Shown in pieces: positions 3,001 to 62,881 of a stretch of DNA of 64,000 nucleotides. Every line of letters starts with the position of its first letter. Position 1 is the first letter of the stretch. The position numbers and the translations under genes were made by a program. A model generated the notes under the pieces. That model was not told where the DNA came from. It made no database searches and worked only from the letters and a program-made list of their open reading frames with translations. Source of the DNA: Marsupella aquatica (Eukaryota > Plantae > Marchantiophyta); assembly GCA_973895155.1 (NCBI GenBank), contig OZ316895.1, positions 12,655,929 to 12,719,928 on the forward strand. The letters run 5' to 3'.

Positions 3001-4395
3001 AAGGAGTCTCTTACGGAGACTGATGATAATCGGCAAGCAATGGATGCACCAAAGAGTGACGCTCCTGTAGCAGAGATGGAAGATCGAATATACAGCGTAG
3101 TTGCTGAAGCTGATCAAGTGGACAACTTGGTTGTTGAAGCCGATCATGTGGACAAGGTGGTTGTCGAAGCTGATCAAGTGAACAAGGTGGTGGTTGTCGA
3201 AGCTGATCAAGTCTACAAAATGGTTGTCGAAGCTGATCAAGTAAACAAGGTGGTTGTCGAAGCTGATCAAATGTACAAAATGGTTGTCGAAGCTGATCAA
3301 GTGGACAAGGTGGTTGTCGAAGCTGAGGAAGTCTACAAAATGGTTGTCGAAGCTGATCAAGTCTACGAAATGGTTGTCGAAGCTGATCAAGTGGAGAAGG
3401 TTGTCGAAGGTGATCGCTTGGACAATGTGCTTGTCGACGCTGATCAAGCGGAGAAAGTGCTTGCCGAGGCCTATCACGCTGTCAAGGCGGTTGTCGAAGC
3501 TTATCAGATAGACGACGTGGTTGAGGAAGGGGATGAAGTGGGCAACGTAGTAGACAATGTGGTCGCAGAAGTTATTAAAGTAGACAACATGGTTGCTGAA
3601 GTTGATTTTCGAGATGATGTAAATAGTTTTGTTGTATCACAGGGTGCAGTAAATAACGACAATACTGCTGAGCCAGAGAGGAATATTGTGGTTGAACAGG
3701 AGTCAAGGACCTCGGTAGAAGAGACTGGTGGTCTGGAAGTGCTACAGTCGTCTGAAACGTTAGCAGGAGAATTGGTGAAGCCTCAAGTTGTGCAATTTGT
3801 AGTCGGGGTATATGAAGAGTTCCCTCCGGAAGTCCCAGCCTCCAAAGAGGTGATAGATGTAGCAAAAGACATTGATGAGGAAACTTTGAAGGCAAAGCGA
3901 GGCACTGGAGTAGAGCATGAATATCAGGATGCTCCCGCCAGTGTCGACAGCAATGAACAGATTAAGGGTGTTGAAGAGGCACCGGAGCCCATGAACGGTG
4001 AAGGTAATGGGCTTGATGTTACGCAAGGTCCATCGGAAACTGCGCCAAGCGAACCCATCCAAAAGTACCCACCTGAAGAAGTGCTGACTACTGTGATTGA
4101 GAATGATGTGAGGATGGACACTAATGGAAAGTTGAAAGAGATCGTAGGGAACTCTCCAGCACCTGAGCAACCTGCCATAGAAGAGCCTCAACCAGAGCCG
4201 CTTACAAGGCTCAGAAAGCGAAGGGCCAGTAGTCGCTTACTGGCTCAACAATCAGCAGAAGCCCAGGTGGTGCCTTTGCAAGAGTCTTCTGATCGTTTGG
4301 CGAGTCAAGGGTCAGTTGGGGTAAAGAAATCTGGTTCTAGGGGATCAACTAGGAAATCTCAGCGCAAGTCAAAGCGCCGAGGAAGTACACATTGA
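1..4395 (+). CDS. 3' part of a large low-complexity protein resembling plant HIZ2/At5g53440 (ZC3H13-like m6A-writer-associated protein); exons <1-1899, 2144-2227, 2464-4395
   Basis: Frame is open from base 1. Phase-0 GT-AG junctions (gag|GTGAAC at 1900, CAG|gcg at 2144, cag|GTTTGA at 2228, CAG|gaa at 2464) join LSQLEISPDLAGPELYAQYRALL to LLPPLPDDVFQ|EALRLY, which resembles the conserved C-terminal block of At5g53440-like proteins as I recall it. The gene model is better supported than the name. Confidence 0.7.
3097..3510 (+). repeat. Coding 30-bp tandem repeat encoding about 12-13 VVEADQV-x-K-x decapeptides
   Basis: Repeated gttgtcgaagctgatcaagt(g/c)-(g/t)acaa(g/a) units, visible in the ORF translation. 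Confidence 0.95.
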
Positions 4396-19275: not shown

Positions 19276-21916
19276 CCCAGCTGTGTCTGTCTCTCTCTCC
19301 TTCCTGTCCCACTCCGACGCACTCGAGGCAATCACCAGGAGATTGCTGATTCGTCCCCAACACCGATCACCAGACAATTCCGTTGCTAGTCCGAGATGAG
19401 CGAGGCACACCTCTCCCTCAAAATGACATCCAAATAGAATCCGCAATCTACCGTACCACCGACTAAGTTTCCCTCTACCGAATCTCTGTCTGTCTACTCT
19501 CTACCTCTTCAACCGAGATCAAAGGGTACGAAATCCTGTCGCCCCGCACAAATACACAAGCTTGATGGATATAGCCGAGTTCCCAGCCATCAACAGTGGC
19601 ACAAAACCAGTGAGTAGTCAATGCGTCAACCCACAGCGTTCTCTACTCAACATTCCGAGCTCCCATCCACAGCCCAGGCTCACTCGCCCGTCGTACAATG
19701 CCAATCCACAAAAAGTTTCACAGAAAGCTTCAGACGCAAGTGACGACTTTGCAGTATCATCAGCGGTGTGGCATCACGGCTGCTGTCGAAGTGCCAGCAG
19801 AGAGCTCACTGCGCAAATGAGTGACCGACGTGAGGAGCTCCAGAGCAGAAGTGACATAAAGCGTGCCTGGGCTTCAATCCAACCGCGCCAACGCAGCCAG
19901 CGTAAGTGGAGGCATTCATTCGACCGACCGATCGATCGATCGATGGGCAACGCAGAGTGCCGAATTGCCCTCTCCAGGACGTTTCGCCTTGTGGGTCATG
20001 TGTCCGTCTGTCTCTCTCCCACTCGGAGTCTGGGCAGCAGACAGCCACTGGTGGCTGATCAACGAGCGAGGAGAGAGGGGGGATGAAGGAAAGGAAAGGA
20101 AGAGCAAGAGGGGGACTTGGAAGTTGGAGTGGACCGCGGGAGATTTGGACCACAGGGCAGAGAGGAGCTTGATAGGCAGAGCGCAAATAGATAGATGAGA
20201 AGCAAACACGTATTGTCCGTCCCCCCCGTTTCCCCGCCTTTCCCTTTCGCTTTCCCTTCCCCCGGGCCCCGCCCGATCTCACACGACTCGGAACTAGTAG
20301 AGTAGTAGTAGTAGGGCGTCTCAAACTTAAGCATTTGGAATTCCGAATGGCACCCGGGATTTCACAGTCGCGGGCCGCCCGGATCAGGTGGTCGGCCCAC
20401 CGATTTGGTGACCGAAAAGTTTTTACCGGGTTTTTTTGGTCACCCGGTCGTCCGCTATGGACTAACCCTGGGTTGGATAGGCAGGTGGCAACTAACTGAA
20501 GCAGCAGACGAGGGCGACTCGAGAATCAAAACCGAACTAGGTGGAGCACTAGACGGGACGAACACGAGAAACGAACACGAACGCGAGACTAGCCCAGACG
20601 GGACAACTGCTAAGAAACAAACACGAACTCGACATTCAACTCGAGGGCCTCCACTTTTCGTATGATTGCGTGGATCAGTCTGTTTCTGTGCTCTCGATTC
20701 GGACGCAGAAAGCAGGAGGACGAGGAGGAGCAGCAGCAAACCTCTCTGTCGCGGGTTCTCTATCGCAATTCTGCGTCAAGGGAAAGGATTCTGGCTGTGA
20801 ATCCGGGAGCTATGGAATTCGAGGATCCATGAGCAGGAGGAGAGCGATTCTAGTTGCTGGAAAGGTTTAGGGCGTGATGGTGGCCGGTCGATGACAGAGT
20901 GATCGTTGTGATGTCGAATTTGGAATGGCTGCTCCACCAGGTGAGAGATAATTTCGAGGGCTGCAGGGGATTAAGGGGTTTCTCGGTTGCGTGAATCCCC
21001 TTCGAGTGTTTGAAGAATAATCTATCCAGGGGATCTAGTTTCCTGTCTCTTTCGATGAAGTTTCTTGTCTCTTCCGATGAAGTTTCCGCCCTCTGTGTAG
21101 TGGTTTGCTCTTCAAATTGCCTGCATAAATGTATGCTTGAAATTTCTGGAGAAATGAACCTTAATGGCAGCTTTACGATGGGCCGTATGTGCTAAACTTT
21201 CCACGCCTGTTCAATTTCTTTGTGCGCAGACGTTAAGGCGGGTTGAGAGTGAGCGATACAAGTGCTGGTCTGCCCGAATAGATTGAGATTTTCGTCGTCG
21301 TTGAGCTGAGATTACATTAGCTGTGGTGATCAAAGATGGCGACAGAGAGAGCAGCAAGATGCTTTTGCAACCACGGCCACGGGCGCGCCTATCACCTTCG
21401 AGCGCCCTCTTCCCACCGAGCTCAAGTTTGCAAAGTCATGTAAGTAGAGCTTTTCTTTGGCAAAGTTATTCGAGTTTGAACCTCGTTGTATCATTTTGCA
21501 TTAATGTCTGCAAGTTAATTAATTAGCCCTTAGATTAGACAGACAAACATGTGTCCCTAAGATGTTTTTCTCATAATGAAATTTATGAGTGAGACGAGTA
21601 GCAACATGTACCTGGCTGATGTCGAGCATTAAATTCAAGTTAATTTTAAAATGGTCCTTAGACTGGTACTGCTCCATCTGCAGTAGCTAGTGGAACTTCA
21701 TGACGATCATCTACGCGTTGCCTTCTGGACAAGAGGAGCGTCTAGGGGGGTACCTCACTTGATCCTCATTTTACCACATTATCGAAATTACATCACCGAA
21801 AGCTAGAGCCCAGGGTAGAAGGTCAAGACTGTAAGCAAACAAGGAACATCCTAGTTTAATTGGGTAATGACAATGTCCTATCGTGAATTGTGTTTGCAGT
21901 AACTTGATCTGACACT

Positions 21917-23460
21917 ATGCCTCGAGTTTCACAACGACAAATACAGCTCAGGGCTGTAAAACAGAAACTTGAGCTTAACATTGCCCTCCTCAGCGACAGT
22001 GATGAGTCTGACGAAGGTGAGAAGGTGTTTCATAAGATGCCTGGACAACTGAAGTGTGCAGGGATTGGAAATTTCAGTAATGAACTGTCTGATGATAGTT
22101 GCCTCCAGCTTGATTCATCTGGAGACAGTGACCATGACGAGTATGACCAAGACGACACAAGACCTGAGGACTTGCTAGAGTTGTATTTTGTGCTATATAA
22201 CACCAGGTATTTCATGCCTCGTCATGTGAGTCTGAAGTCCAATGACTTTGCCACTCAATTCTTCCATAACCTGCCAGAACTACTTTTCAGGCAACTTACA
22301 AGGATGAATAAGAATTCCTTTTTCCATTTGCTTGACTTGGTATCGACTCATCCAGTCTTTCAGAACAGGTCCCAATTTGAGCAAGCTCCTATAGTCAGGC
22401 AAATGGCAGTTTGCCTTGACCGTCTTGGGCATGATGGTAACGGGGCTTGTCTTAACCATATGATCCCTACCTGGGGTGTAAGTACCGGTTCTTTGGTGAA
22501 TTTTTCGAAACGATGCTTCTGTGCACTTGAATCTGTTCTTGCAGACCAGATCCAATGGCCAACTAGGGATGAGCGTCTTCAGCTGAGTGATGGTTTTGCC
22601 AGACTTGGATTCCCTGGATGCATTGGTCTCATAGATGGGTCTCTCCTACCTCTTGCACAAAGACCTGCTCTCCATGGTGAGTGCTATTACGACAGGAAGT
22701 CCAGGTACTCAGTTAATGCTCAAGTGGTTTGTGACAATCGACGCAAAATCCTCTTCATGTTTACAGGTCTGTGTTGCTCCTCACTTCATAACCAGTGCTT
22801 GTATTCTGTCACTGGCATGCTCTTTAACCATTCAATTCCGCTTAGCGTTTAATGTCTTTATCTTGACTTTGTTACAAATCACTCCTTACAGGAATGCCAG
22901 GCTCCTGTAGTGACCTCACATGTGTGAAACGCTCCCCACTATTCCAGTACTGCAATGGAGTTGGTGGAACACTTCTTTTCGATGAAAATCAGTACCTGCT
23001 AGGTGACAGTGGGTACCAAGCTCTTCCCCACTTGGTCTGCGCTTTTAAAAGGTCTGACTTCTGTCAAGACAAGGAGGACTTCAATACTTGCATTGCAAAG
23101 TGCCGGGTCACAAATGAGCACTGTATAGGGGTACTAAAATCCCGTTGGCATTCACTGAAGGAGGTCCGCACTCAATTGAACAAGAGTAAGGACTCTCTCT
23201 GGATGATACGGTGGGTTTCCTTGTGTGGCAAACTGCATAATTACGTTATGAGCATGAACGACGAATGGTCTGAATCTGACATGGAAGAGGATAATTGTGA
23301 TGAGCCCCCAGCTGTAGTGGAGGAGGCAAACATAGTCCCAGACCCTGCACGTTCCTCAAGGCGGAGAACTGCTGAGGCTGGTCACGCTATTTTACTCAGG
23401 GTTATGGACGATGCTCTCACATTCTACCGCCAACCAGGAGGATTTTTGCACCATGACTGA
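21917..23460 (+). CDS. Harbinger transposase (DDE_Tnp_4/HARBI1-like nuclease); exons 21917-22766 and 22892-23460
   Basis: GCIGLIDGS, YYDRKSRYSVNAQVVCD, YLLGDSGY and NEHCIGVLKSRW supply the D-D-E triad; phase-1 intron 22767-22891 (GT...CAG) joins the two ORFs with no internal stop. Confidence 0.92.
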
Positions 23461-25234: not shown

Positions 25235-27473
25235 CTAATCTAGGTCGATTGAATCACCATCTTGTTGGTGAAGCCCAGACTCGGGATGTGTGGTGGAATC
25301 GAACATTGGATTCATCGCTGCAGTAGCACAGAGAACCTTCGGAATTATCCCAAGGAGGGTTTGCATCTCATCACATGTTCTGTTTGTCTTGATGAGCTCT
25401 GTCAACAATGCAAGTGTCTGTTGAGAGTTAATACACCGAAGTTGATGATCATGCTCCACTTTTGCCTTCTTTGCTTCGTGCAATCTGGTGGATCTGTCCC
25501 TATCTCTACTTTCTCATGCTGTGTTCTCTCGCAATTCATTGGCATCTCGTGCAACAGCTTCTCTTGCCTCCCTTGCTTCTCTGGCAGCAGCTTCCCTGAA
25601 CTCTTTTCGTTCCCGCATGTCCTCTAATCTCCATTTATCCTTTGCTTCGATGATCTGCTGCTTAAACACATTTTTCTCATTCAACTTCTCAAGGTAAACT
25701 TCGGCCAAATTAGGCCTGGATGTAGCTTGTGAGGGAACTGCCCTCCTTGGTGTTCCTCGTCGTGGGCCGTGTGGTGTTCCACGAGTTGACTGAGGCAAAG
25801 ATCTGGGTGTTGCCTGAGAAGCATCGGGAGATCCTGTTCTCAGTGGTGTTGGCTCAGGTCCCTCTGGTCGAAGATAACCATGCTGTGGAGACACATCTTC
25901 TGTTGATTCAGGTTCCTCTGGTCGCTCTGAAAAATCATCCACGGGCTGTCCATCAAGGCAGGATTCAGTCCTACATGGCATATTTGTAGTGACATCTGCA
26001 ATCATAAATTCGAAGTTAAATACCACAATCTCCACCCGACAGACCCTAGGCTGACCTTCTTCATCGGCCACACAGCAGAGGCAAGAATCTACGCTACCAT
26101 CCGCAAATGCTGGCATCCATCAGTGACAAGGCAAAATAATTATCTACTCCATTTTCTGACCAGCTAACTACGCAGCTCAATCCGTGATGGGTTGACGGTA
26201 TTCGGCTTGAACATTGAGCTTCTACATTGATGCCATGTTAGAGGACCACACCCATTCAGACTCTGGTATATATTTCAACCTCTCGAATAGACCCATTCTG
26301 AGAGGAGGAAAACATGGCTCGAGGGCCCAACGAAAAGAGATTAGCTAAGATCAAAGAAGATTGAGAGGCACGATCAAAGGGCTAGGGAGATTGTTGCAGA
26401 GGGTCTAGAGTCCGTTTGAAGACTTGTTCTAAGATCTCTGACTGATTAGACACAAAAGATCGCAGCCTCTGCAAATTCCTCTACAGCACATTTGGAGATC
26501 GTCCCTAAACAAGAATTATTTGAAGTATATAAAAAACTACGCCAGAAGGTCAAGCAAATAGACATTTCCTTACTATGCCTGAGAAGCGACTGGAACTCTG
26601 GACATGACTTCTTCGCTGTCTAGTACATCTAACTACGCAAATATAGACGACTACTCCAATCCAGGAAAATCTGGGGGCTGCCGATGAGCTAAAACAATGT
26701 TGATAACCTCCCTGTTACCTGATACGATAGTTCGCAAATGCCATATGAAGGGTTTCTCCTCGTCTCTTACAAACCAAGAGTTGCAGACCATAGTCGTTAA
26801 GTCAGACATTGAATTTGTTACCTGATGGCGTTGGAGCTGCGATGTGTGGAATTTCCTCAGCTTCACCACCATCATCGTCATCGGAGCCCTGATCCACAAA
26901 TATTTCGGAATGTCCAGGCAATCCAACACAACCTGTGCTAGGCGGGGACACATTCGCCCTGTGCCCATACAAGGCATGCATCCTCTCAAAATGAGGGCAG
27001 ATTTTGTCAAGTTTGGCTTCGATAGTAATCCCCGCTCTTATTTCTTCCATGGTAACCCCAAATCCTGAGTCTCGCTTCATACCTAGAGCTTCCTTGTATT
27101 TAGCGACATATCTACCAAATCGTTTACCCAGGTTGTCTCCATTTGCTACGAACGATGCAAAGCCTCTTGACTGAATCCAAACAAGCATCAGTCTAAAAAC
27201 TGTTTTCTTATTTGGATGCTTGGTGGCTGCTCCCTTATCACGCACTCTGTCTCCTCCGTTCAGCATTGCAAAATTATCACCTTCCTCCAGCCATTCAACA
27301 ATCAACAATAAGTTTGCCGGTGTGAGTTTGCGCCCTTCAGAGCTCCCTGCCTGGGTTGCGGGAGTAGTCACCATGGCTGGCAATTCGTGAATGTGCACTG
27401 ATTGGGAATCCTGTGCTTCTTGACGCTCATCAAACAGAGCGCGTTGTCTTGAACCCGACTGAGGAAGCTCCAT
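25235..27473 (-). pseudogene. Harbinger second gene (Myb/SANT-like DNA-binding protein with coiled-coil C-terminus), one premature stop; probable exons 27473-26822 and 25995-25235
   Basis: LLIVEWLEEGDNF...YKEALGMKRDSGFGVT...KLDKICPHFERMHALYGHRANVSP motif block; phase-1 GT-AG join to a S/T/P-rich then charged helical exon; in-frame TGA at 25514-25516 splits two colinear ORFs. Start codon uncertain. Confidence 0.7.
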
Positions 27474-27943
27474 GTTCCTGCTATGTATCCTTGTGTTGTG
27501 TGATTCTTCGATAAATCTTCGAGGCTGAATTCTTGATTTCAAATCAGACGCTCCTCTTAGTGCAGCCGCGGCCCGCGGGGATGTGCCACTGAGGATTGAG
27601 GAAGACGCTCCTCTCAGTGCAGCCGCGGCCGTGAGCAAGTCATTCAAACGGAACCCCTACGTGGCACTTAAACACATTTGATAAACCCAGGTTTAACCCG
27701 TGCCGGGACTCCTTTTAGGTGCGAGATAAAGTTCAGACCCCCGGTTTTTTGGGACCCGATTTTGGGTACCGGTGGTCAATATCGGGCGGCGACCAGAGAC
27801 ATCCGGGTGACCGGAAGGAGTCCTGTAACGCGCAGGGTTGAGACGCCCTAGTAGTGTAGAGTAAAGTTCCGGGTACAGTACAGGAAACTGGTTACCCAAT
27901 TTTCCGTGGAACTACAGTACGCTTGGTTACCCGATTGGCCTAG

Positions 27944-48336: not shown

Positions 48337-51300
48337 TGTTAGAATCTACCTTTGACCGGACGACCGGACCAGCCGGTCACCCTGGTCCCACTATATGTAC
48401 TCCTATTCCCGACTATATACAGGTTCATTCCATTCTATTCTCACACGTTATCAGCACGAGGTCTCAGCCAGCGGAACCGAAAAGAAGAAAGAGAAGACCA
48501 TGGAGAATTGAATTTTTTTTTTAAAATGCCAAATGGAAGATAAAGCGTGATAAGAGATGGAGCACACGGGTCTCGTTTTTCCTTAGGAAAGCGAACCAAA
48601 GGAAGAGCGAATAAGAACTTTTCGAAAACAGAAAGGAACCTGGAAAACTTCGATCTGGCCTCAGACGATCAAGAGAAGAAGGTCGAAAGCAGCAAATGTG
48701 ATATAGAAACGAGAGATTGAGGCGCAATCTGAAATTACCATGATTTGAAGGCCGAGCCATGACGGAACGATCTCATAAGGACATCGAAGATCACTTAAGG
48801 AGGCAGAAGAGCAGAGCCTAGACATACACGGCAGCCCACCACGAAATCTAAATAGAGACGAAAAGCAGACCCGGGGAGATTCCCATAAGAAACGACAAAG
48901 GGCAATCGGGAAGAACCCTCAAACACTATAATGATATGAAGAAGGCCACAAGTAAAAAGGAGATTTGAAGGTCACACGAAGAGGCGTGAAGGGGGCCACC
49001 AAGAGGTGTCAAATTGAGCAACATTGCAAGGAAGGATGACGAGGGAAAACCGATAAGCAAACCTCCCTCCTTGACTGCACAGTTTTTACAAAGTCATTTC
49101 CTGCACAGCAAGCAATCCATGCACTTAACCAAATAAGAGCACATAACCGAAAAACCTCCAGAACTGCACACCGTAACAAAGAAAATTAACTTTACAAAGA
49201 CACATGTGCACTTAACCAGGGCACGACTAAACAATCACCCATAAATGCAACCCTAAGTGCACAACTGGATAACTGCACAGTTTCACAAAGGAAATAGTGA
49301 TTACAAAGGAAACCTTGCAGTTATACATTTACAAAGAAACCCAACTTAATAAGTGTAAACCCTAAATTCTGCAAAAACCCAAACATTCTCGCTTTACTCG
49401 CCCACGAATTAGATAGCCCTCCTCAACCCTTTCTCCACCATTGCATGCGGCAAATGTGCATTGTCTTTTGACTATATATATTATATATAAACACGCACAC
49501 CACCGCTGCACGCCAGGACCTTAGAGATGACCAACCTTGAGAAACTCACCTTCCCCGCCCTAGAAATAGATGGCGGCAACTACCTAGAATGGTCCATGAA
49601 CCGAAAAGAAAACCTAACCTCGCTAACCCTACTCCTTGCGATAGGGCTCGCTCAACCCATCCTTGCCGGCGAACCACAACCAGACCCATTAAGTAAAGCC
49701 AACGAATCTAAGGCTCTAGTATTCCTGAGACGCCATATCCATAGATTCCTACAAAGACAATACATGCACCTCTCAACCCCCCGTGAACTTTGGACAGCGC
49801 TCCAAACCCGATTCGACCACCAAAAACTGGTCGAACTGCCTAAAGCCAGGCAAGACTGGCTAAACCTATGAGTCCAGGACTTTACCTCTATTTCAGCCTA
49901 CAATAGCGAACTCTTTAGAATAACCTCAACTCTCGCACTATGTGGCGAGCCGGTCACAGACAAGGATCTGCTAGAGAAGACCTTGTCGACATTTCATTCA
50001 TCGAATGTGTGGCTATCAACATAGTATCGAAACATGAAGTTCGGGCAATACTCCGAGCTCATAGCCCACCTCCTAGTCACCGAAAGAAACCAAGAACTTC
50101 TTTTCATAAACTCTAGAAAACGACCTGCGGGCACAATGCCCTCAGGACAACAGAATGAAATCCATAACATAGAAAATGATGAACCCTCCACATCGAGGCA
50201 AGGCATTAAACGCACTAAGAATAGCAATCGGAGAAACACCCACAACAGGGGGAGTTTCTATAACCAACGTCCACAATATAACTCCCAACGAACTTTTTGA
50301 GGACGTGGAGGACGAGGAGGACGAGGAGGACGAGGAGGACGAGGAGGACGAGGAGGACGAGGCGGACGTAGCGGACGCGGAGGACGCGGCGGTGGAAGAA
50401 CATATAACAACAACCGCCGAAATGATTGGTCACAATCCCGACCACAACGGGAACGCCCAAAATGCCATGCATGTGGCATGACCAACCACCTAGCCAGAAA
50501 CTGTAGAATCCCGCAACACCTTAAAGAGCTATATCAACGATCCCTCAGGGACGGACAAACCTCTAGGGCACCACCCCGTGAAACCCACGGGGCGTTTATG
50601 GAGTCTAGCGACCCATTCCGAGACTTTACAGATCTACCTGCCCAACCCAAGACACACTTAGTGGCAAGTAGCCCCACTACACCAGATTTAAATAGTCCAA
50701 GCACATGTATTATTGACAGTGCGACCACGCATACTATCCTCCGGGATAGGCACCTTTTCCACATGATTACACCCTCACGTAGGCCCCTGACCACTATCAA
50801 TGGTCCTAGCCAAATAGAAGAGGGCTTCGGCCCAACTTCTATTAGACTCCCGTAGGGTGCCGAAATACACATAGAATTTGCCATTTTCGCCCCAAACGCA
50901 ACTTGTAATCTCCTCAGTTTCAGAGATATACGAGCAAATGTACTACACGTCCAAACAGGCGATACAAGAGACCAAGAGGTCATCCACTTGGTTGAAAATA
51001 CCCCTACGGGGAAAATCATTAAAGAAACCTTTTTCTCGTATCCTTGCGGGTTTTATGTAACTCATATAGAATGCCTGCATAACAATGCCAACACAAGTGA
51101 ATTGCATGCGCTCTGGCATGCACGCCTCGGCCACCCCGGCCAATCAATGCTAACCAAAATAACTAAGAATTCAAGTGGCATTCCAATCAATACACGCCAC
51201 ATTCAAGCTAGCACCTCATGCACTGCATGCTCACGTGGCAAATTAATAACAAGGCCCACGGCATCAAAATTGTCAACCAACATACCCAAATTCTTGGAAA

Positions 51301-54300
51301 TAATCCATGCCGATGTTTGCGGGCCAATTAACCCATCGAGCGGACCATTCTGCTACTTTATGGTATTAATCGACGCATCAACTAAATGGTCAAATGTGAC
51401 ACTGCTTTCAACGAGGAACATGGTTATGCCTCGCATTTTGGCGCAAATCTTGTGCGTGAAAGCACAATTCCCAGATCACCCCATTAAGACACTAAGGGTG
51501 GACAATGCAGGGGAATTCACATCCGAAACATTTGATGACTTTTGTACATCACTTGGCATCGACGTACAATATCCTGTACCTCACATGCATTTTCAGAACG
51601 GATTAGCTGAAGCAGTCATAAAACGCCTTCAGTTAATTGCACGCCCATTACTAATGCAGTCAAAACTCCCTGTCTCAGCATGGGGACATGCCATATTACA
51701 GGCTAATGCATTAATCCAATACCGCCCATCGGCCCTTAACACCTATAGCCCATACCAAATTGCTAATGGTATAAAACCTGACTTATCCCACCTTCGTTCA
51801 TTTGGATGTCAAGTAATGGTCCCCATTACTCCACCCAAACGAACCAAGATGGGACCCCAACGATAATTGGGGATATACATCGGATTCGACTCACCGTCTA
51901 TAATCTGATATATGGAGCCTACAACTAGTGACGTTTTTAAAGCCAGATTTCTAGATTGTCATTTTGACGAACATATTTACCCACCATTAATAACCCCTGA
52001 ACACCCACAACCACCTTTGGAGTGGGAAAGACATTCGCCATTTTGGCAAGACCTTAGAACGAATCAAGGTGAGAAAGAAGTTCAACGAATTTTGCAACTC
52101 CACAAGATTGTGGAAGAACTTCCTGACGCTTTCATTGACACATCACAATTTACCCGCTCACATATTCCAGCTGCGAGAGCATCTGCTCGCATCGAATTAT
52201 CAAGTGAGCCAGCAAGTACATCCCAACCTCGTGCAAAACGAGGTAGACCCTTGGGATCAAAAGATAAACAACCACGAAGGCGTGGTTCATCTATACCACC
52301 TTCACCTGATGTCGATCATACCGAATCTACATCCCATGAAGAGATCTCTATCCACTACGCACACACAGGTGCGATGTGGGATAGAAATACTACTTTAATA
52401 GATTATGCTTTTGCATTAATGGTGGCAACACATATCACTGACGATACACCCAAACCAATATCTATCTTAGAATGCCAAAACAGACCAGATTGACCTGAAT
52501 GGCAAAAAGCTATAAATGGAGAATTAGATTCCCTACTCAGCAGACACACTTTTGGCCTAGTCAAGCCAACATTGCAAGACGTACACCTAATTGGCTACAA
52601 GTGGACATTTGTCCGCAAAAGAAATAATAAAGGCCAAGTTGTACGCTATAAAGCACGTCTGGTAGGGAAAGGATTTACACAACAACCGGGAATTCATTAC
52701 GATGAAACTTACTCACCGATTATGGATAGCACAACATTCCGATATCTTATCGGATTTGCCATTTTCCATCAACTACAAATGCGACAACTGGATGTTGCGA
52801 CCGCATATCTATATGGAACTTTAGACACTTGTCTATACATGCGATCACCTCCGGAGTTGGAGCAACGTCGCCGAGCTTTAGCTCAAGGCGCTAAATCGCA
52901 TATCCCATATTTACATAAGATTGTAACACAATTATCTCAAGTTACACCTCATGTATCATCTACACATGTAACTCATAATAATGACACCGCTGTGTCAACC
53001 GTACGGAATACTCGCCGTGGACTAGCTATCCGCGTGTTGAAGGCATTATATGGCCTGAAACAAAGTGGCAGAGTATGGTATCAAAGATTTACTGATGAAA
53101 TGATTGCCATGGGTTTTTCCCATGATGCCATTACACCATGTTTATTTATTAAACATGTGGATGATGAATATGCCATCGTTTCTATTTATGTTGATGACTT
53201 AAATATATTTGGGACACCCCAACTTACTGGAAAACACTATTACCAGTCTTAAATCAACATTTGATATGAAAGACCTTGGACATACAAACTTTTGCTTAGG
53301 CTTACAACTGGAGATCTTACCTATTGGCATGATACTCCACCAAACCACACAAACCGAAAAGATCCTAAAATAGTTCAATATGAACCTAGCACACCCATTG
53401 ACGTCACCAATGGTTGTACGTTCATTAGAAAACACCACTGATATTTTTCGCAAGCACGAAGAACATGAACCACTATTAGGACCAGAAACCCCATACCTTT
53501 CTGCGATAGGAGCATTAATGTACCTAGCAAATCAGACTAGACCAGACATTGCATTTGCAGTTAACTTACTAGCCAGACATAGTGCAACTCCCACAGCCAG
53601 ACATTGGAATGGAGTTAAGCACGTATTTAGATATCTACGTGGAACCACCGATACCGGGTTATTTTACCCATTCGGTGCAAACCACAAGCTCATAGGATAC
53701 ACGGATGCCGGATATCTCTCCGACACTGACACCGCAAAATCCCAAACTGGATATGTTTTTACCATAGGGGGTACCGCTTTTTCTTGGAAAAGCGTGAAAC
53801 AGACCCTAACAGCAACCTCATCGAATCACTCAGAAATCTTAGCTCTACATGAGGCTAGTCGTGAAGCCGTTTGGTTACGATCCTTTATAAATCACATCAA
53901 CACCAAATGCGGCCTACCACCACTAACGAAGCCTACTAACATTTTTGAGGATAACGCAGTATGTATACAGCAGATCACAAAAGGATTCATCAAAGGCGAT
54001 CGCGTGAAGCATATAGCTCCGAAGTTTTTCTACACCCACGAACTACATGGAAAAGAGATCAACATTTTGCAAATTTCAAGTACAGACAACTGTGTGGATC
54101 TCTTCACCAAATCACTACCACCATCAGTTCATCATCGACACTGCCAGGCGATTGGACTGCGGAGCGTGCGACGCATGATGACCGTGGAAGCTGTTGCTCC
54201 ACATGATACTTGATGATGTTGACAACATGATGCTGACGATATACTGTTGACGATCCACCGATGAGACAAATGCTAAAGCTAGATTTACTATAACATCTAA

Positions 54301-54648
54301 CTTTATACACTATTGACATTTAATTACAACGAGGACTGTTAGGCTGCACTCTTTTTCCTTTAGCACTCATTTTTTTCTCTGCTCCATTGGTAGAGTTTTT
54401 ACTAAGCTAGAGTTGATAAAGGTTTTTTAACGAGGCAGTCTACCTCAATTGTACTTATATCATGTATTTCCTATGAACATGATATAATAGGTATAGTCTA
54501 TGTTGTCTATATAGTTGTCACTATATATCCAAAGGGGAGTGTTAGACTCTACCTTTGACTGGACGACCGGACCAGCCGGTCACCCTGGTCCCACTATATG
54601 TACTCCTATTCCCGACTATATATAGGTTCATTCCATTCTATTCTCACA
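48337..54648 (+). mobile_element. Full-length Ty1/copia LTR retrotransposon, Bianca-like, coding region disabled
   Basis: 109-bp LTRs 48337-48445 and 54540-54648 (TG...CA, three mismatches); TSD GAAAT both sides; PBS CGTTATCAGCACGA; PPT AAGGGGAG; domain order gag-PR-INT-RT-RH. Confidence 0.97.
49527..54213 (+). pseudogene. gag-pol of the copia element with at least eight nonsense codons and one frameshift
   Basis: gag LTFPALEIDGGNYLEW, zinc knuckle CHACGMTNHLARNC, protease CIIDSATTH, integrase WHARLGHP/IHADVCGP/RVDNAGEF/QNGLAE, RT LYGLKQSGR/IYVDDL, RNase H FEDNAVCI/IKGDRVKHIAPKFF; frame changes near 53230-53250. Confidence 0.95.
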
Positions 54649-54974
54649 GAAATTGTGATTTTAATTGAATAGAGCTCCTGTTGCAGTAGGGTGCCTCTAC
54701 TCTGGAGAGTCTTTATGGGGGACAACTGGACAGTATCGGTTCAAAAGCAAAGCACAACTGAATATTCTAATAAAAAATGTTGTCTCTGTGAGATTGAATT
54801 CAAAGCAGATTCCAATATTGTACATCATGAGGGGTCTTATGAAATTTTTTGCCATCTAAATTCAAATACAACTCATGTCTACTTTACTATAGGCCCCCTT
54901 GGGCCTTCTATTCTATTTGAGTAAAACAATCCAGCCATTCTTTTTGGGAGTAGACGGTAGTATCTTGCCACTTG

Positions 54975-55375
54975 GACAAGGGGATGGGAGTGAAACTCGC
55001 CACAATGGTCTCATGGATCCATATACTAGCACCCACTCTGTCTCATTTCTGGGCAAGGCCATTCTTTTTAGGGGAAGACAGTGGTGTCTCACCACTTACA
55101 TGAGGGGATGAGAGTGAGACTCACCTTAATGGTGTCATGAAACCACACACTAGCTGCCCACGTGTACTCTTTTCAGAAACACTTCGTGGGCAGTGCAAAT
55201 TCCTTTTGTTGGACGACATACTGACTTGGATGAGGGGATGGGAGTGAGACTTACCACAATGGTGCCATGCAATCGCACTCCGGCACCCGCTGCATCCTCA
55301 TTTCAAAAACACTTCCCTGGGCGTGGAAGATGTAGCGACTTGGATGAGGGGGTGGGGGTGAGACTCGCTACAATT
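54975..55375. repeat. Four dispersed copies of gaggggatgggagtgagactc(g/a)ccacaatggt
   Basis: Copies near 54979, 55102, 55232 and 55346. Confidence 0.8.
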
Positions 55376-55852
55376 GGGGGTCTCAAATATGGGGCCCTCA
55401 TAGGTATTCCCGGGAGGTTACCATTGCCCATGAGGAGGCCTGCAGCCAAGTCTAGCCGTAATGAGTAATTTTTGCACCTCAAGTTTTTGAGGCCTCAGCC
55501 TAGGGAGACATGGGTGTGTGGTAACTTACTTGAGTAGTGACTCATAAGTATTGGGTTCAAAAGTTATATGACTGATCCCTTTTGATTTCTTTAAAATTAA
55601 AAGGTTTTTGAGGTCCCTATGTGTGACTTCCCGGTGGAGAAACTACTCGTGAGGGTCGAGAACACCCTCAGCACACAAAAGAGTGAGTAAACACGGCCCT
55701 GGCTGGTGAGTTCAAACTTGGCAAGTGGTGACGTCCGAACCAATCTGTCTTGAAAATCGCGAAACCCAGAGGAGGGGTGCGGGCTAGCTTTGAGGGTGTC
55801 CCGCACAGTTTTGGGCTACATCCGCCCGCAGAACTGCCCCATAACGTATAGG

Positions 55853-55969
55853 ATTAAGGGCTCTGCCCATCCCATAATGGGGTATAGGGTCGAGCGTATG
55901 TGGAGGCCCTGTGGGCCGACGCATACGCATAGACCCGTACCCCATTATGGGGAGGGCCGAGCCCCTAAT
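55853..55969. repeat. 117-bp imperfect palindrome (foldback)
   Basis: attaagggctctgcccatcccataatggggtatagggtcgagcgtatg pairs with catacgcatagacccgtaccccattatggggagggccgagcccctaat. Confidence 0.9.
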
Positions 55970-55974
55970 CAACG

Positions 55975-58900
55975 TTAAGGATCAAAATGAACGACGAAGA
56001 TTACATCGGGAGGAATGGATGGCCTTCCAAGCGTCGTGCTATGTCAGGGTCGTGAAAACTGATGGACAGCTCCGATTGAAAGGAGCTAGGGTGGGCTAAT
56101 CGAACGGCTTAGGTCAAATGCCAACCAAAGGCCGCCAGCTATATGGCGCTCACTATTCAGGTATTTGTCATTATGTCGCAGATGTTCTGTAGATTTGTAG
56201 ATTGGTGTTGCGCTCCCGGTGCACTGCGCTCTTGAGTTGTCGTGTAGACTTCGTGTTGCCAGCAGCTCACTATCGGGAGATTGATTGATTTCGCTACTCA
56301 CATTGCTGCATGTTACCTTCGACTATTGATGCGCGACTGGAGGTTGGCGAGCCGGAGGTGTTGGAGGGCCGGGTCACACTATTGCTTGCAGATTTGTTTG
56401 TGCATTGGTTTGTGTTGATAAATCACGTCGCATTCTCCGTTTGATGACGTTGTTTGGTCTAAATTCATGGATTGTTGTGTGCGCCTACAAGGTGCCGAGC
56501 GGGAAGCATTGGAGGACGAGTTGAATGCTCTTGCCATCGGTTCTTGTTGCCGATTCTAGCCATGGATTGTACACGTATGTGGAGGTTGGCGGGCCAGAGG
56601 CGCTGAGAGGGCTGGGTCACATTCGTCTTGCTATGCTTGCTAACTCATTTTCTTATCTGCAATCTGGTCATTATCGCTTTATCTGCTCTAACTGCTATTG
56701 CCATGGACTGTCCATGTGCAATTGCAGGTTGGTGAATTGAAGCTGTTGGAGGACCTCCTAGTTTGTGCATTGTTGATTTGGATGGACAGGCCATCATTTA
56801 GCATAGGGATGTTGATGATGAAAGGCGCTGCTATCGTTGACGACACAATGAGTAGTTCCTCGAATGATTGCACATTTGGTGACAGTTGTATGGCGGAGCT
56901 GCAACAGCTGAATGCGAGTTTAGACAGCTTACATGTAGATGAGCGTCCCAAGAAAGACCCGATTGTGATCGAAGTTCAGGGCTAGGCAGTTGTAGAGTTT
57001 CTTGTAGAAGATCCACAGTTCCAAAAGACCCTTGCCGAGGGCGGTTCTAACCCAAGCGCTCCTGTGGATCGATGGGCAGTCAATCGATTGACTCGATTTC
57101 GAGAGTTTAAAGGGTGGGATGCCAGTGTTCCATTCGAGGATCTCTCTTTGGCTGAATGTGCATCAATCCTAATCAAGTTTTTTGAGCAGATTTGTAAGAA
57201 GGACGACAGCTTATATCCGACCCAGACATTAATGGGACTGTACCATGCATTTCATCAAGTATTGAGGCGCCGACAGGAAGTTCGAATTGTACAAACAGGG
57301 ATGGACGAGCCCATCTTTCATATGCGCGAGAGTCCTCTGTTTAAGCAAGTTGGCATTGCTTGCGTGTTAGCGATGGAACGGTCAAGATCTAATGGTGCTA
57401 ATTTGCCTTGCAAAAAGGCATCTGTCATCTCATTGGCTGATGAGGCCACTATATTATCTCACCCTTGCACAACCACTATTTACCCTCGTGACCTACAGCG
57501 TCGTGCAGTGTATTTCCTTCTGTTTCGATTTGCCATTCGTGGAGGTGATGAGTTGCATCGGTTGGCGAAGACAGACTTTGAAATTGGATGCAATGAGACT
57601 GGACAGTTCGTAAGATATGATGAGCGTCTATCAAAGAACTACAAAGTTGGTCTTGATCGGTATCAGGATGAGCATTTTTGGCCTGCTGTAACCAACTACA
57701 ATAGTTCCATGGTTGAGACGGTCGAGAGTTTGATTTCTCATTTGCCTGTTGCAGGCATATTTCTATTTTACCAATGCATAGATAGCCCTCAGACTCATGC
57801 ATGGTACTCGACTCAACGCGTGTCTGTGAAGAAGTTGAGTGGTATTCTCAAGGAGATTCATCGGGAGTGTGGTTTGGTTACAGATGGTGTCACTAACAAA
57901 TCTGGCAGGACCACTTGTGTGACTCGCATGGTGACTGAAGGCATTCCTGCAGAAGTTGGGATGATTATCATAGGCCATAAGAGCCAAGGTGCCTACGCCC
58001 GATACGATCGCAGCACAGAGTCGAAGGTTATAGCAGCCCAGAAATGTGCCAGTGGCTCATCCAGTTTTGAAGCAAATTTTCATGAGGAGACAAAACGCTT
58101 CAAGCAGAAGGTGGTCAATGGAGATGATGACGATGTCTCGCCTCACAAACGCAAGAAGGGAGGTGAAGGTAATCTTGTGGAATCTTTGTAATGTCGATCG
58201 ATTCGCAGCCTTTTGATATTGTCTGCTAAATATCTGCAACCACTAATTAGTGTAATTTTGCGACCTGGTGCAGATATGGCTCCGCCTGGTGCAGACATTG
58301 CTCCAACAACGGGTCCAGCAGAGATTCAGACCCCTGCCACAACTGAGATGATGACTCCTCTAAATGAGATGGTTCCTATGGTGATTGAGTTGGCTCCCTT
58401 AACTGAGAGTGAATTATCTTGTGATGTGAATGCAGATGGAGAGGTCGACTGGAGGGATGACGGATGGGTTGACGACTACAACTAGGATGAGCATTTTGAG
58501 AACTTGCGGCCGAGCTCTGTTGTTGTTAATCCAGTGCAGGCACTCTTCACTAAAGTGCAGTCCATCAACAATTGCACTATTTTGATTTCTATTGGGAAGT
58601 TAGGGAACTAGGGAACTAATGTCAGTCGTAGTTACTAGCTTGTAGACATAGGCTTATACCGTCTTGAGTGTAGAACTCATTGTAGTTGGCCCGCATGGCA
58701 TTGTGCTCAGTACTTACGAGGCATATTAGACATAGATATTATAGCCTGAACACGGGTTTTGTCAAACAACCCTCAATCAATCATGTATATACATAGGTTT
58801 TATACCGTCTTGAATTGGTCATATGACCCTTATTGATGTAATTCTTTCCTGTTATCAATAAAGTTTCAAGTCTCTCCACCGCTGGAGTTTTCATTTTCAA

Positions 58901-59033
58901 AAAAAGTTATGTTGGCCGTATGTGAACCATATAAATATACGGTATAAAATAATGAGATATCATCCACCCAAAAAGTGCTAACCTGGCAGAGCCTAAAGCC
59001 CCAAAAAACATTACACCCACCCAATGACCTTAA
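55975..59033 (+). mobile_element. Crypton-like tyrosine-recombinase DNA transposon (boundaries tentative)
   Basis: Encloses a lone tyrosine recombinase gene with no RT or RNase H; candidate ends GTTAAGGATCA (55974-55984) and TGACCTTAAC (59025-59034), each containing TTAA. Confidence 0.6.
56809..58611 (+). pseudogene. DUF3504/Crypton-type tyrosine recombinase with two premature stops; probable intron 58169-58273
   Basis: FAIRGGDE (R at 57538), ERLSKNY, VTNKSGRTT, IGHKSQGAYARY (Y at 58003) give the R-K-(H/K)xxR-H-Y catalytic set; in-frame TAG at 56983 and 58483; C-terminal SINNCTILISI. Start codon uncertain. Confidence 0.85.
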
Positions 59034-59816
59034 CAGTGTCATGTCATGGAACCCCATACTGGCCGCCCCTGCGTCGCTTCAAGGGCCTGGCCCGCAACGA
59101 TACGATAGGGAATCGAATCGTCCATCCCACGCTGTTGTTGCCAGGCGGAGGATCGGATCAGATCGGATCAGATCCGCTCCGCTCATTCGCCGCGCCCTCT
59201 CTCTCTCTCTCTCCTCTCCTCTCTCTTCTCTCGTCTCCTCTCGTCTCCTCTCCTCTCCGCTCGTTCGTATATAAGCTCCACTTCTTCGTATATAAGCGCC
59301 GCTTCCGTGTCTCATTGTTCGCGCGGTGCGTTTAGAGGAGAAGAGAAGAGACGAGAGCAGAAGAGGGAGCATCGCTCTCGTGTCCTGCCCCCTTCCTTCC
59401 TTCCTTTCCTTCCTCGTGCTTTTGTCACGAGGACCAAACAGCTTACTGCCAATCGAGCAAAGCGAGCAGCAGCAGTAGTGTAGGGCGGAGTAGAGGAGGG
59501 CTGAAGATGGGTTTTATTATCATTACTGGCAAATCAAGTTACTGAGTTTTCTAAGTCCGAGAAGAAAGCCTGCATGTCCGGTGGAGCATCTGCCGCCGAG
59601 AAGGTTGCCAGTGATCCCCTGAGCAGTAGGCTGGAAGGAGCAGCAGCACTGGCTATATAAGCGGAGGAAGGAGTCCGAGACAAGTTCTTGCTTGCTTTGC
59701 TCGCTTGCTGCTTTCTCGGCGAGGAGCCGAGGGAGGAGGAGGAGGAGGAGAAAACTTCAAAGGATTGAAGGGCAGAAAAGCAGTAAGCGAAGTGCATAAA
59801 GGAATACGACGACGCG

Positions 59817-59819
<3 letters not shown>

Positions 59820-59856
<37 letters not shown>
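59820..59856 (+). repeat. (GA)n microsatellite in the TFIIA-gamma leader
   Basis: About 18 uninterrupted GA units. Confidence 0.95.
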
Positions 59857-59860
<4 letters not shown>

Positions 59861-59909
59861 GTTTTAGGCTGCTCTAGCTGCCGTACCTGCCTGAAACAAG
59901 GAGGGAGGG

Positions 59910-62881
59910 ATGGGTAGCTATGAACTCTACCGCAAGTCTTCAATTGGCATGAGCCTCACAGACGCCCTCGACGAGCTCGTCACCAACGGCACCATCTCGC
60001 CTCTCCTCGCTGTCAAAGTGCTGATGCAATTTGATAAGGTAGGTCGGTGGTCCGCCAGGCAAGCCACTCTCTGTCTCGCTCTCCCCTTTTCTCTCTCCCT
60101 TCCTCTCTAGCGCTTTGCCGCTCTTAGTAGAGCCACCGGCTGCTGAATCCCGTTTATTGGCCTGCAGTTGCATTTGGACGCTGACACTGCAAGTCCTTTC
60201 CCTCGTTCTCCTTCATAGTGCACATGACCTCATATTTTTCCTGCTCAGCCGATCCACATTGAATAGGGCGGATGTGAAGTGTACAATCTTGTTGGCACTG
60301 CCCAGCAGATGACGTTCATGCTACGATTTCAGTTTGACCAGTACCTCCTATGACATTGAGAAGGCGAAGTTGAGTTGTGCTGTTGGTCATTTGGTCCGTG
60401 TAGATCGCTCTTCGCCTACTCCATCTCCGGCGATCTGCATTCTTGCTAGTGTTACGCCGCACGATCTCCGTGTGAGCATCGCCGCATACTTCCTCTCCTG
60501 CGCATTGTGTGACACATGTTATTCTGTCGCCAGGCCGGTGTCAAGAGTAGATGGCCGAGAGCATATCACGGTAATTATCTAGCAGGAAGGCCTGAAGATG
60601 ACGTTGATCCTCAAGAACACTGATGATACAATGACCGTGGAAGGGTGTGCACATTTCACTAGTCTGACGATGTACTTTAGAATCTCAAAATCCTCGTGCC
60701 AGCTCTATGTGGGAAAACGAATTGTAGCTTCCTGACTGAACGTAATCGTAGCAGTGAGATCCTTCCACAGAAAATTGCCTGATATTCGTTTCCTTTTGCC
60801 TACCGAGGAATGGTGGTGAGGTCTGTCGATGATCACCCAGATTCCTTGGACTAGATTATCCACCATATTGCATCTGCCTGTTCTGTATCCAGTGCCTAGA
60901 TAAAGTTGCTCTCGTCTTCAAGCGTTAGAGAAGTAGGTTAGCAGTTTAGGTTGTATTTAGAATCTCTGGCCGTGTCGCATACGCTGAAGAATTTTAGAGT
61001 TCCTGAACTAGTGTCCCTATCCAAAACACGGATCTTCCATCTTTTGTTTAGCCGAATCACCTGTATTTTCGCCCGTGGGTGTTTCAATGAAGATCGCCTA
61101 CTTTGGCACTTCAGACTATAAGTCACAACTCTTGCTTTATGTGTCTTTAGGATCTTTGTTTAACCTATTGTGGAGAATCCGGAGTAACAGCAGTCCGTCA
61201 CAAATGCTTTATATACTTTTCTAGTTTTGTAGAGTCCCACTTGAGACTATAAATTACAACTCTAGCTATTCGTTTGCCTTTGGGATTGTTACTTACAGTA
61301 TTGTGGAGACTCCGGAATAGCAGCAGTGAGTCACAAGGGCCTTATATACCTTTCTAGTTATGTTTTGGAGTCCTGTAAAAGCTTGCTGATGGCCTCTTCA
61401 CATTTTCGTCTGCAGTCTATGAATGATGCGCTATCACAGAAGGTGAAGGCGAAGACAAATTTCAAGGTGAGAAACGTCTGTACTTTTCTTGTCCAGAATC
61501 CAGGCGATATTTCCACATACCCACTTCTATGTAAATCCGAGGTTTACATGAATAGCTTAATTTTGTGTGTTTCATGAATGGATTCTATCCCGAAACGATG
61601 CAAAAACCAAACCGTGAAAATGTTAAAGATTACCTTGTCGAGTAAACCCAACTAGTTGAATGCCTCATTCTTAAGTTGATTCGATTCTTTGCTACAACTT
61701 GATCTGCTAAATGGTACAATTCTGTGAGACAGCTGGAGATCCTAAGAGCGAGAACTGATGCCTTTCATGAGTAGAGGATGCACGATGTAGCTTTGATCAG
61801 TCTCCCAGATCTAATCAAAATCTTTTGGTTAGGACTGAAAATAGCTTCAGTGCTTCTCCAGCGTTGCCATTAACATCGACCCACCGATCGATAGAAGGGG
61901 TGAATGTTGTTCCTTCCGTGAGAGGTTGGGGTTATTCTCCCTTCATGACAGTGCCCCGTTCCAATTTGGAAGGGTCTGGAAGGTCAGGAGAGGAAGCTAA
62001 CGTCAAGCTTGCATTTTTTGGAGTATGCTCCCTCTCGCATGGTTTTGACTGACCACGCTTTTCTATCGTATGCCCACATTAGGCAATATGCTCTCGATAC
62101 TTGCCACAGATTTATGACCTATAAATATTTTAAGAGAAGGCTAGAGAGTGAGTGCAGTTCCTTGAAATGCCACTAATGGAAACATGTAGCAAGCGACTGA
62201 TCGGAACACGAAGTAATCGCAGCTGATCAATCGTAGGGGCAGGATCAGAATAGAGCAGTGTCCATAAACAGGTAGTGGAAGGGGCTTGGACGTGCTAGGG
62301 GATATGGGACGTAAATTGCGTTACATTCCCTTCCTTTTCATGGTGATAGTTGGCGTAAAAGTGTAGTATGCTTTTTATCTGGTCTAGCATAGACGAGTGG
62401 GCTGGAAAGTCTCCTAGGATTCAATAGCGTCTATTTTTATCAGTGATGATCATGGGCAGAGTAAATCCAGTGAATTTTATTTCATCAGTGGCCAGGATTA
62501 ACACAGCGAAAATGATGGATCTCGTCGATGAATATAGAGCGTCGGAGGTCATTTTGGGGCTGAGAACCACTTACTATGCCAAAGAAGTTCTTTCAGGGAC
62601 GAGGCATGCCCGAGTCTTTTGTCTGTGGTCGTCAATAACTTACAACAAGTGTGTCGTCTCATTTGAGTGATATTATTCGCGATATGTATAGACTGAGATA
62701 CAGAGCTGATTGTTCTTTGTTTGTCATCGATGATCTGCAGGGTCACTTGCACACATATCGATTTTGTGACAATGTTTGGACGTTCATTCTAGAAAAGGCC
62801 GAATTCAAGATTGAAGGTGAGAAGGTTAACGTGGACCGGGTGAAGATTGTTGCCTGTGATGCAAAAATTATATCTCGTTGA
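59910..62881 (+). CDS. TFIIA-S: Transcription initiation factor IIA gamma (small) subunit, 106 aa; exons 59910-60038, 61416-61466, 62741-62881
   Basis: [24 protein letters not shown]...VLMQFDK|[17 protein letters not shown]|[18 protein letters not shown]...[12 protein letters not shown]; two phase-0 GT-AG introns; 43+17+46 = 106 aa. Confidence 0.98.

Follow-up and report, generated by a model that had tools for sequence, protein, structure and literature searches.

A recombinase-only repeat in a liverwort genome

We describe a DNA element located at 55846-59034 of a 64,000-nucleotide stretch of the liverwort Marsupella aquatica (GenBank assembly GCA_973895155.1, contig OZ316895.1, positions 12,655,929 to 12,719,928 of the forward strand; hereafter, the window). 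The locus is a slightly and recently decayed copy of a multi-copy DNA element that carries no mobility gene other than a recombinase. By homology and structural modelling, this only mobility gene encodes a tyrosine recombinase with a Cre-like fold, and we consider it probable that the element moves as Cryptons do, by site-specific recombination through a circle. An earlier note, made from the letters of the window alone, had proposed a recently decayed member of a seed-free-plant, recombinase-only lineage related to DUF3504 and Crypton, and the analysis supports this.

Contigs from five public sequencing runs (X1 to X5, from three studies and possibly including the run behind the window itself) were aligned to the window. 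The median depth over the coding region was 13.8, 26.1 and 9.6 times that of the single-copy flank in X1, X2 and X3, respectively, which, summed contig depth not being copy number, is read as about ten or more copies. The 194 X3 contigs differ widely in their identity to the window: 33 match at 99% or more, 39 at 95-99%, 45 at 90-95% and 77 below 90%. Three internal deletions (57335>58509, 57327>58549 and 56215>57546) were each present in two to three runs. Depth, clipped contigs and deletion derivatives together describe a dispersed multi-copy repeat with defined ends. Outside the runs, no related loci were found in metagenome contigs (queried with alignment A2 and protein P0158), viral contigs or prokaryote genomes, and a 20-letter pattern of the element's ends had no match in viral or prokaryote contigs.

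Extent and ends of the element

The ends were placed using contigs of other copies that align up to a point and are clipped beyond it. At the right end, the clipped contigs stop behind position 59034 in three of four runs (four in X1, four in X2 and three in X3; agreement 0.54-0.59), and the depth falls from 9-13 times the flank in the final inner bin to 0.8-1.6 times in the first outer one. At the left end, the pile stands before 55846, again in three of four runs (six contigs in X2, six in X3 and four in X5; agreement about 0.5). The earlier note had bracketed the element by short TTAA-containing inverted ends. Its right end was correct to within one base, while its left end, 55975, is crossed unbroken by contigs of other copies, and the true pile lies 129 bp further out. 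No pile at 55975 or 55974 was found among the 24 loose ends listed of 455, which is no proof since six were listed per run. From the piles at 55846 and 59034 and the contigs crossing 55975, the element therefore comprises 55846-59034, including a palindrome of about 120 bp. The GTTAAGG/CCTTAAC pair once taken as its ends occurs in the window at chance level (four and seven times), and its left member lies 128 bp inside. A reading of TTAA as the target was rejected on the positions of the clipped contigs; the core that the junctions share is AAC|GT (the bar marks the junction). The features of the element are as follows.

55839..55845, plus strand: left flank CCATAAC, likely target half-site; six of its seven bases equal the element's final seven (CCTTAAC)
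55846..59034, plus strand: entire element, 3189 bp (clipped contigs at both ends; depth drop at the right end)
55852..55970, no strand: imperfect palindrome in the 5' terminus, two 58-nucleotide arms, 76% complementary (fold and other copies)
55974..55984, plus strand: inner GTTAAGG motif, an inverted match to the right terminus, with a second AAC directly before it (sequence)
55985..56781, plus strand: 5' non-coding region, less conserved among copies (depth minimum 1.5-3.5 times the flank)
56782..58168, plus strand: recombinase exon 1 (homologue alignment; model matching Cre)
56983..56985, plus strand: internal TAG, codon 68 (sequence)
58169..58273, plus strand: predicted 105-bp GT-AG intron, phase 1 (sequence)
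58274..58611, plus strand: exon 2, acidic low-complexity tail with an internal TAG at 58483-58485 (homologues)
58857..58862, plus strand: AATAAA, possible poly(A) signal, with no second AATAAA from the stop codon to 59034
59025..59034, plus strand: right terminus TGACCTTAAC (clipped contigs behind 59034 in X1, X2 and X3)

As single-stranded DNA, the palindrome folds at -48.7 kcal/mol (z -9.95; none of 200 shuffles equalled it). Comparison of the element with itself returned the palindrome and one 42-bp internal repeat only, with no long terminal repeats in either orientation; long inverted repeats and split direct repeats were likewise absent. No frame above 123 codons other than the recombinase was found, and Rfam gave no match over 54800-60000.

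Two elements might instead adjoin here: first a non-autonomous palindrome of 128 bp (55846-55973), then a recombinase element (55974-59034) ending in GTTAAGG and CCTTAAC, both using AAC|GT, so that each insertion would remake the target for the next. Consistent with this idea, AAC|GT is present at both 55843 and 55971, the palindrome reaches a depth of 21-30 times the flank compared to 1.5-3.5 times at the minimum of the adjoining 5' region, and left-end-like sequence is also found after right ends. However, diverged copies carry the palindrome, GTTAAGG and the downstream DNA joined in the same order. This is the case for record 17 of X3 (55896-56171), record 24 of X5 (55843-56411, 43 differences) and three more X5 contigs. 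A joint 55902>56013 in X1 and X2 and the lack of a clipped pile at 55974 among the loose ends listed further argue against two units, which we regard as unlikely.

A recombinase with lysine at the HxxR histidine position

The spliced product spans 574 codons (56782-58611) and is interrupted by exactly two TAG codons, at 68 and 533, as the earlier note had counted. That note had opened the frame at 56809 and closed it at 58168; the end holds, and the start is moved to the ATG at 56782 (MDRPSFSIG), to which residue 1 of homologues P0001 and P0007 aligns in tblastn. The phase-compatible second exon was likewise confirmed, with the predicted intron running GT..AG from 58169 to 58273: tblastn alignments of P0003 and P0010 extend into exon 2, and the C-termini of these proteins match its conserved VNP(I)..F.K..S..NC motif. 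In the copies represented in contig depth, position 56983 is mostly C, and the second TAG (58483-58485) is Trp in homologues. Both stops (56983 and 58484) fit C-to-T changes at CHG sites, on the plus and minus strand respectively and with the second change deduced from the homologues' Trp, which would agree with the decay of a methylated transposon.

The motifs FAIRGGDE, SKN, TNKSGR, GHKS and ARY, noted previously, do lie in one frame. By alignment, the catalytic set consists of R253 (57538), K285 (57634), K373 (57898), R376 (57907), H399 (57976) and Y408 (58003). K373 occupies the position of the HxxR histidine of Cre-type enzymes, and the R-H-R-Y tetrad reads R-K-R-Y here. Recombinase activity with Lys in place of His is plausible, because a Lys is found at the equivalent place in type IB topoisomerases (PMC2747268).

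An AlphaFold model covering the 401 residues of the open stretch and drawing on 78 sequences reached a predicted local distance difference test score (pLDDT) of 91 and a predicted template-modelling score (pTM) of 0.83; it supersedes a first model from eight sequences with pLDDT 51. Both domains of the model match those of Cre (Foldseek E 1.7e-8; Z 19.6, root-mean-square deviation 3.1, 297 residues aligned), and IntI4 is also among its best fold matches (Z 15.5). The family profile, compared with PDB sequences, placed QRICH1 on top (6e-13), followed by integrases and XerA.

The recombinase gene could be a passenger in a unit mobilised by a Helitron, a Replitron or a Harbinger, in the last case as a Tourist-like miniature inverted-repeat transposable element (MITE) derived from the palindrome. 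TAA stands on both sides of the palindrome, as in a Tourist MITE, a Harbinger-type DDE gene is present at 21.9-23.5 kb, and terminal hairpins are typical of rolling-circle elements. Nevertheless, other copies stop not at the TAA-bounded unit but at 55846, 12 bp further out, and on the right they continue past its TAA; running past 55968 rather than stopping at terminal inverted repeats, they led us to reject the palindrome as a Tourist-type MITE. Helitrons have the consensus ends TC and CTRR, which the element lacks. Moreover, the recombinase is its sole gene, and the catalytic set is kept across liverwort and fern homologues. A passenger recombinase is thus very improbable.

Tyrosine recombinases are also encoded by DIRS and Ngaro retrotransposons, of which the locus could be a fragment or a non-autonomous derivative, and our trees included no DIRS or Ngaro sequence. 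A six-frame Pfam scan of 54801-59902, reading through stops, returned Phage_integrase, DUF3504 and one weak unrelated match, with no reverse transcriptase (RT), RNase H, gag or DDE domain in any frame, and none of the 27 homologues scanned contains an RT domain. The earlier note's statement that no RT or RNase H lies nearby is, taken literally, wrong: a copia RVT_2 domain and an integrase occupy 50.3-54.8 kb, outside the element. The lack of long inverted or split direct repeats, the predicted intron interrupting the gene and the nearest non-plant relatives, which are DUF3504 proteins mostly with QRICH1 domains, also speak against a retrotransposon origin, which we find barely credible.

Junctions and proposed movement

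At the left junction the sequence is CCATAAC|GT, and the terminal bases of the element are CCTTAAC, the core common to the junctions being AAC|GT. TAAC precedes both junctions, and GT follows the left one and, in the consensus of other copies, also the right one. The left-flank consensuses of other copies end in CCCTTAT, CCCAAAT and CCTAAAT (CC.WWAT, three runs) and thus resemble the 3' end of the element. When the consensus of the letters clipped after 59034 is compared with the left terminus, 16 of 19 positions agree in X1 and X2 and 14 of 19 in X3, and 55846 is the sole match that good among 127,962 places in the window. Junctions of a right end with left-end-like sequence therefore exist, be they tandem copies, re-targeted sites or circles. 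In the Crypton model of Goodwin, short direct repeats, a circle and a target resembling the terminus are expected (described in PMC3212892), and the target of the active CryptonF of Chlamydomonas resembles its terminus (PMC9977147). By analogy, the junction pattern is compatible with both.

We propose that the recombinase is the mobilising enzyme, with Lys working in place of His, and that it would recombine short AAC|GT cores at both junctions, releasing the element as a circle. The circle would then insert at a target like the element's own 3' end, near CC.WWAY|GT, and the palindrome with the inner GTTAAGG may constitute the donor recombination site after the ends join. When the ends were joined in silico, the right terminus paired with the inner GTTAAGG and extended the hairpin.

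Several observations weigh against movement as a Crypton. The canonical HxxR histidine is absent from the window protein, and both expected Pfam families were matched below their cut-offs: Phage_integrase with E 4.6e-4 and 20.4 bits (cut-off 27.1), and DUF3504 with E 8.6e-3 and 16.6 bits (cut-off 29.7). The window's own right flank begins with AG instead of GT, which leaves this copy with an imperfect direct repeat. The gain in the hairpin upon end-joining is modest (-54.6 vs -50.0 kcal/mol), and the evidence on the ends consists of column consensuses of three to six clipped contigs per run, from runs that may share loci. Finally, the run contigs revealed neither an empty site nor a circle nor an event of transposition; among them, X5 has no coverage on the right flank and gives no empty-site evidence either way; no joint spanning the element was present among the joints listed.

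A plant lineage related to Cryptons

A search with the single sequence returned 10 homologues of 52-64% identity, three of them from Calypogeia fissa, and a profile search gave 2077 matches at E <=0.001, 72 of which reached <=1e-30. The organism was looked up for 30 of the 150 profile matches listed: 16 were from plants (Adiantum, Riccia, Calypogeia, Marchantia, Ceratodon, Selaginella and Diphasiastrum) and three from animals, with no angiosperm among the 19 that carried an organism name. Hosts of relatives include liverworts, a moss, lycophytes and ferns. The nearest non-plant matches are DUF3504 proteins with NHSLR or NHSG motifs.

In a tree of 31 rows, a branch with 100/100 support separates 20 plant or plant-like rows from 11 DUF3504 rows, and the window protein pairs with a Calypogeia protein (99/93). 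This tree is unrooted, contains no CryptonF, CryptonS, CryptonI, DIRS or Ngaro sequence, and was obtained from a 50-row quick tree and its kin by dropping fragments and near-duplicates. At the HxxR histidine position, 102 of 193 proteins were informative, with Lys in 62, His in 28, Arg in seven and other residues in five; the His-bearing proteins with a named organism were all animal. The suggestion that Lys at this position could mark the lineage is supported, in that plant-lineage proteins have mostly Lys and some Arg.

The UniRef label of the Marchantia protein is 'DUF3504 domain-containing', and among the plant-group proteins scanned only Riccia P0071 passed the DUF3504 cut-off (31.7 bits). 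On these sequence comparisons the most fitting description of the element is that of a sister or offshoot lineage in plants, and it was not filed as CryptonA because it failed both the DUF3504 cut-off and the tetrad His.

In Adiantum capillus-veneris, six loci (P0011, P0156, P0157, P0013, P0016 and P0017) lie on five chromosome-length contigs and form two subfamilies, one about 98.6% identical and the other with gene models that retain the full Lys-type catalytic set. Three of the loci are 98.6-98.7% identical to each other, which suggests recent movement in ferns too.

Likely domesticated relatives

The recombinase-like Marchantia gene Mp5g04240 (P0019/P0161) is conserved, with 94.5% identity between the M. 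polymorpha and M. paleacea versions, and has no GH motif. A further set of proteins (P0046, P0058, P0035, P0217, P0216 and P0188) joins an N-terminal domain of about 190 residues to a recombinase-derived domain; their named sources are lycophytes (Selaginella, with two genes, and Diphasiastrum), a fern (Adiantum) and a conifer (Cryptomeria). The pairs compared are 41-58% identical. Neither the catalytic Arg nor the HxxR region is present in their recombinase-derived domain, the Cryptomeria isoform seen ending earlier. The 31-row tree unites the fusions in a single clade (100/100) and places the Marchantia gene as its sister (95/87), a placement that, given the long branches, is a lead only.

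A profile of the fusion proteins matched PDB 8P26 with E 6.5e-15. The chain, of 238 residues, is labelled 'U2 snRNP auxiliary factor-like', and we take it to be Arabidopsis PAXX. This length fits the approximately 236 residues of AtPAXX, in a report whose text does not give the PDB code (bioRxiv 10.1101/2023.05.26.542399). Our literature search found no paper on a PAXX-recombinase fusion. Mp5g04240 is likely domesticated, and, judging from these sequences, catalytically dead host genes appear to have arisen within the plant lineage as well. A PAXX-fused dead recombinase would parallel the animal ZMYM, QRICH1 and KCTD1 domestications, tied here to a DNA-repair family.

Such genes lend some colour to the idea that the window locus is a domesticated single-copy host gene turned pseudogene, an idea we dismiss since the locus is multi-copy, with sharp ends, deletion derivatives, private stops and a conserved catalytic set, and its protein sits in another branch of the tree than Mp5g04240 and the fusions. 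Of the findings that the earlier note had said would count against it, neither a single-copy intact orthologue nor RT-bearing copies were seen; copies do end elsewhere than at the proposed TTAA site, on the left side, which changes the anatomy of the element and not its class.

Comparison with known systems

The CryptonA/DUF3504 elements of animals and the Glomhoppers of Glomeromycota are, like the window element, recombinase-only, with similar RGG.E, SKN, TGH and final Tyr motifs, but they have the HxxR His where the plant group has Lys or Arg. Animal Cryptons showed no terminal repeats in the work of Kojima and Jurka (PMC3212892), and the boundaries of Glomhoppers could not be fixed (PMC13465315). 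In contrast, the window element has sharp ends, a 120-bp 5' palindrome and a land-plant host. With CryptonF, including the active CryptonF-1_cRei of Chlamydomonas (PMC9977147), and CryptonS it would share a short direct repeat at the junctions, imperfect in the window copy, and a terminus-like target; gene-proximal insertion is a further likeness, the window copy lying about 0.9 kb before a TFIIA-gamma gene. The cores of these elements are CAYCG or TATGG, compared to AAC|GT here, the window recombinase is of DUF3504 type, and their GCR1_C and peptidase domains were not found in the window element. The animal DUF3504 domesticates (ZMYM2/3/4, WOC, QRICH1, KCTD1 and KIAA1958) belong to the same domain family as the window recombinase, whereas the window copy is a repeat that keeps Arg-Lys-Lys-Arg-His-Tyr; the plant domesticates have a PAXX-like head where the animal ones have zinc fingers or BTB.

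A further likeness is to integrons, whose gene cassettes carry attC hairpins with the sites GTTRRRY and RYYYAAC. The minus strand of the element starts with GTTAAGG, has the inverse CCTTAAC before the long imperfect hairpin, and ends with a GTT donated by the flank; joining of the ends would pair both motifs at the hairpin base. However, these motifs fit GTTRRRY/RYYYAAC at six of seven positions, the element carries its own recombinase, and Cre is a better fold match than IntI4. Arguing by analogy, the element might be an integron-cassette-like eukaryotic transposon that entered land plants early, stayed mobile in liverworts and ferns, and gave rise to the PAXX fusion in vascular plants, a combination that we consider doubtful. 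The joined ends of the excised element would fold into a hairpin of about 150 nucleotides, whose CCTTAAC/GTTAAGG base would be the substrate of a recombinase bearing a Lys like that of type IB topoisomerases; the single strand exchange would be resolved by replication, which would raise the copy number. If this were true, the PAXX-recombinase fusion may steer end-joining repair to DNA.

The published hosts of Cryptons are fungi, animals, stramenopiles and one green alga. The DUF3504-type elements come from opisthokonts and mostly lack known ends (PMC3212892, PMC13465315), and, according to a 2026 review, the excision, replication and insertion mechanism of DUF3504 Cryptons lacks experimental demonstration (PMC13565253). 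Our literature search, outside which lay subscription papers, Repbase and bioRxiv supplements, found no paper on a land-plant Crypton, and plant names gave no match in the supplements of PMC13465315 and PMC3212892. Because the land-plant lineage combines sharp ends and a short core with young copies and near-intact enzymes, it makes the mechanism of DUF3504 Cryptons testable, as well as whether a Lys-for-His recombinase works; such an enzyme would provide a site-specific recombinase that is native to plants and has a short target.

Surroundings of the element in the window

The interval 50301-54800 holds a decayed Ty1/copia element with gag-pre-integrase, rve and RVT_2 domains and a contig depth some hundreds of times that of the flank; it belongs to a different family from the recombinase element, which it far exceeds in depth. 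It is followed by four tandem units of 114-130 bp at 54934-55374 and, at 55375-55730, by one or two further repeat families with piles of clipped contigs at 55565 (22 contigs) and 55679. The right flank of the element was considered as a continuation of the tandem units and rejected (score 60; shuffled sequences reached 66). The TFIIA-gamma gene (PF02268, E 8e-21) begins at 59910, about 875 bp beyond the right end.

Further upstream, a stop-split PIF/Harbinger-type DDE_Tnp_4 gene occupies 21908-23460, and two opposite-strand frames without a Pfam match at 25514-27656 may represent the Harbinger partner gene. A 656-codon acidic frame at 2425-4395 contains about ten 13-residue VVEADQV repeats and has no Pfam match. 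The window also includes an exon of solanesyl diphosphate synthase, a single gene that points to a leafy liverwort as the likely host: it is 93% identical to that of Calypogeia fissa and 85% to that of Marchantia paleacea, the other 20 of 22 matches being below 80%.

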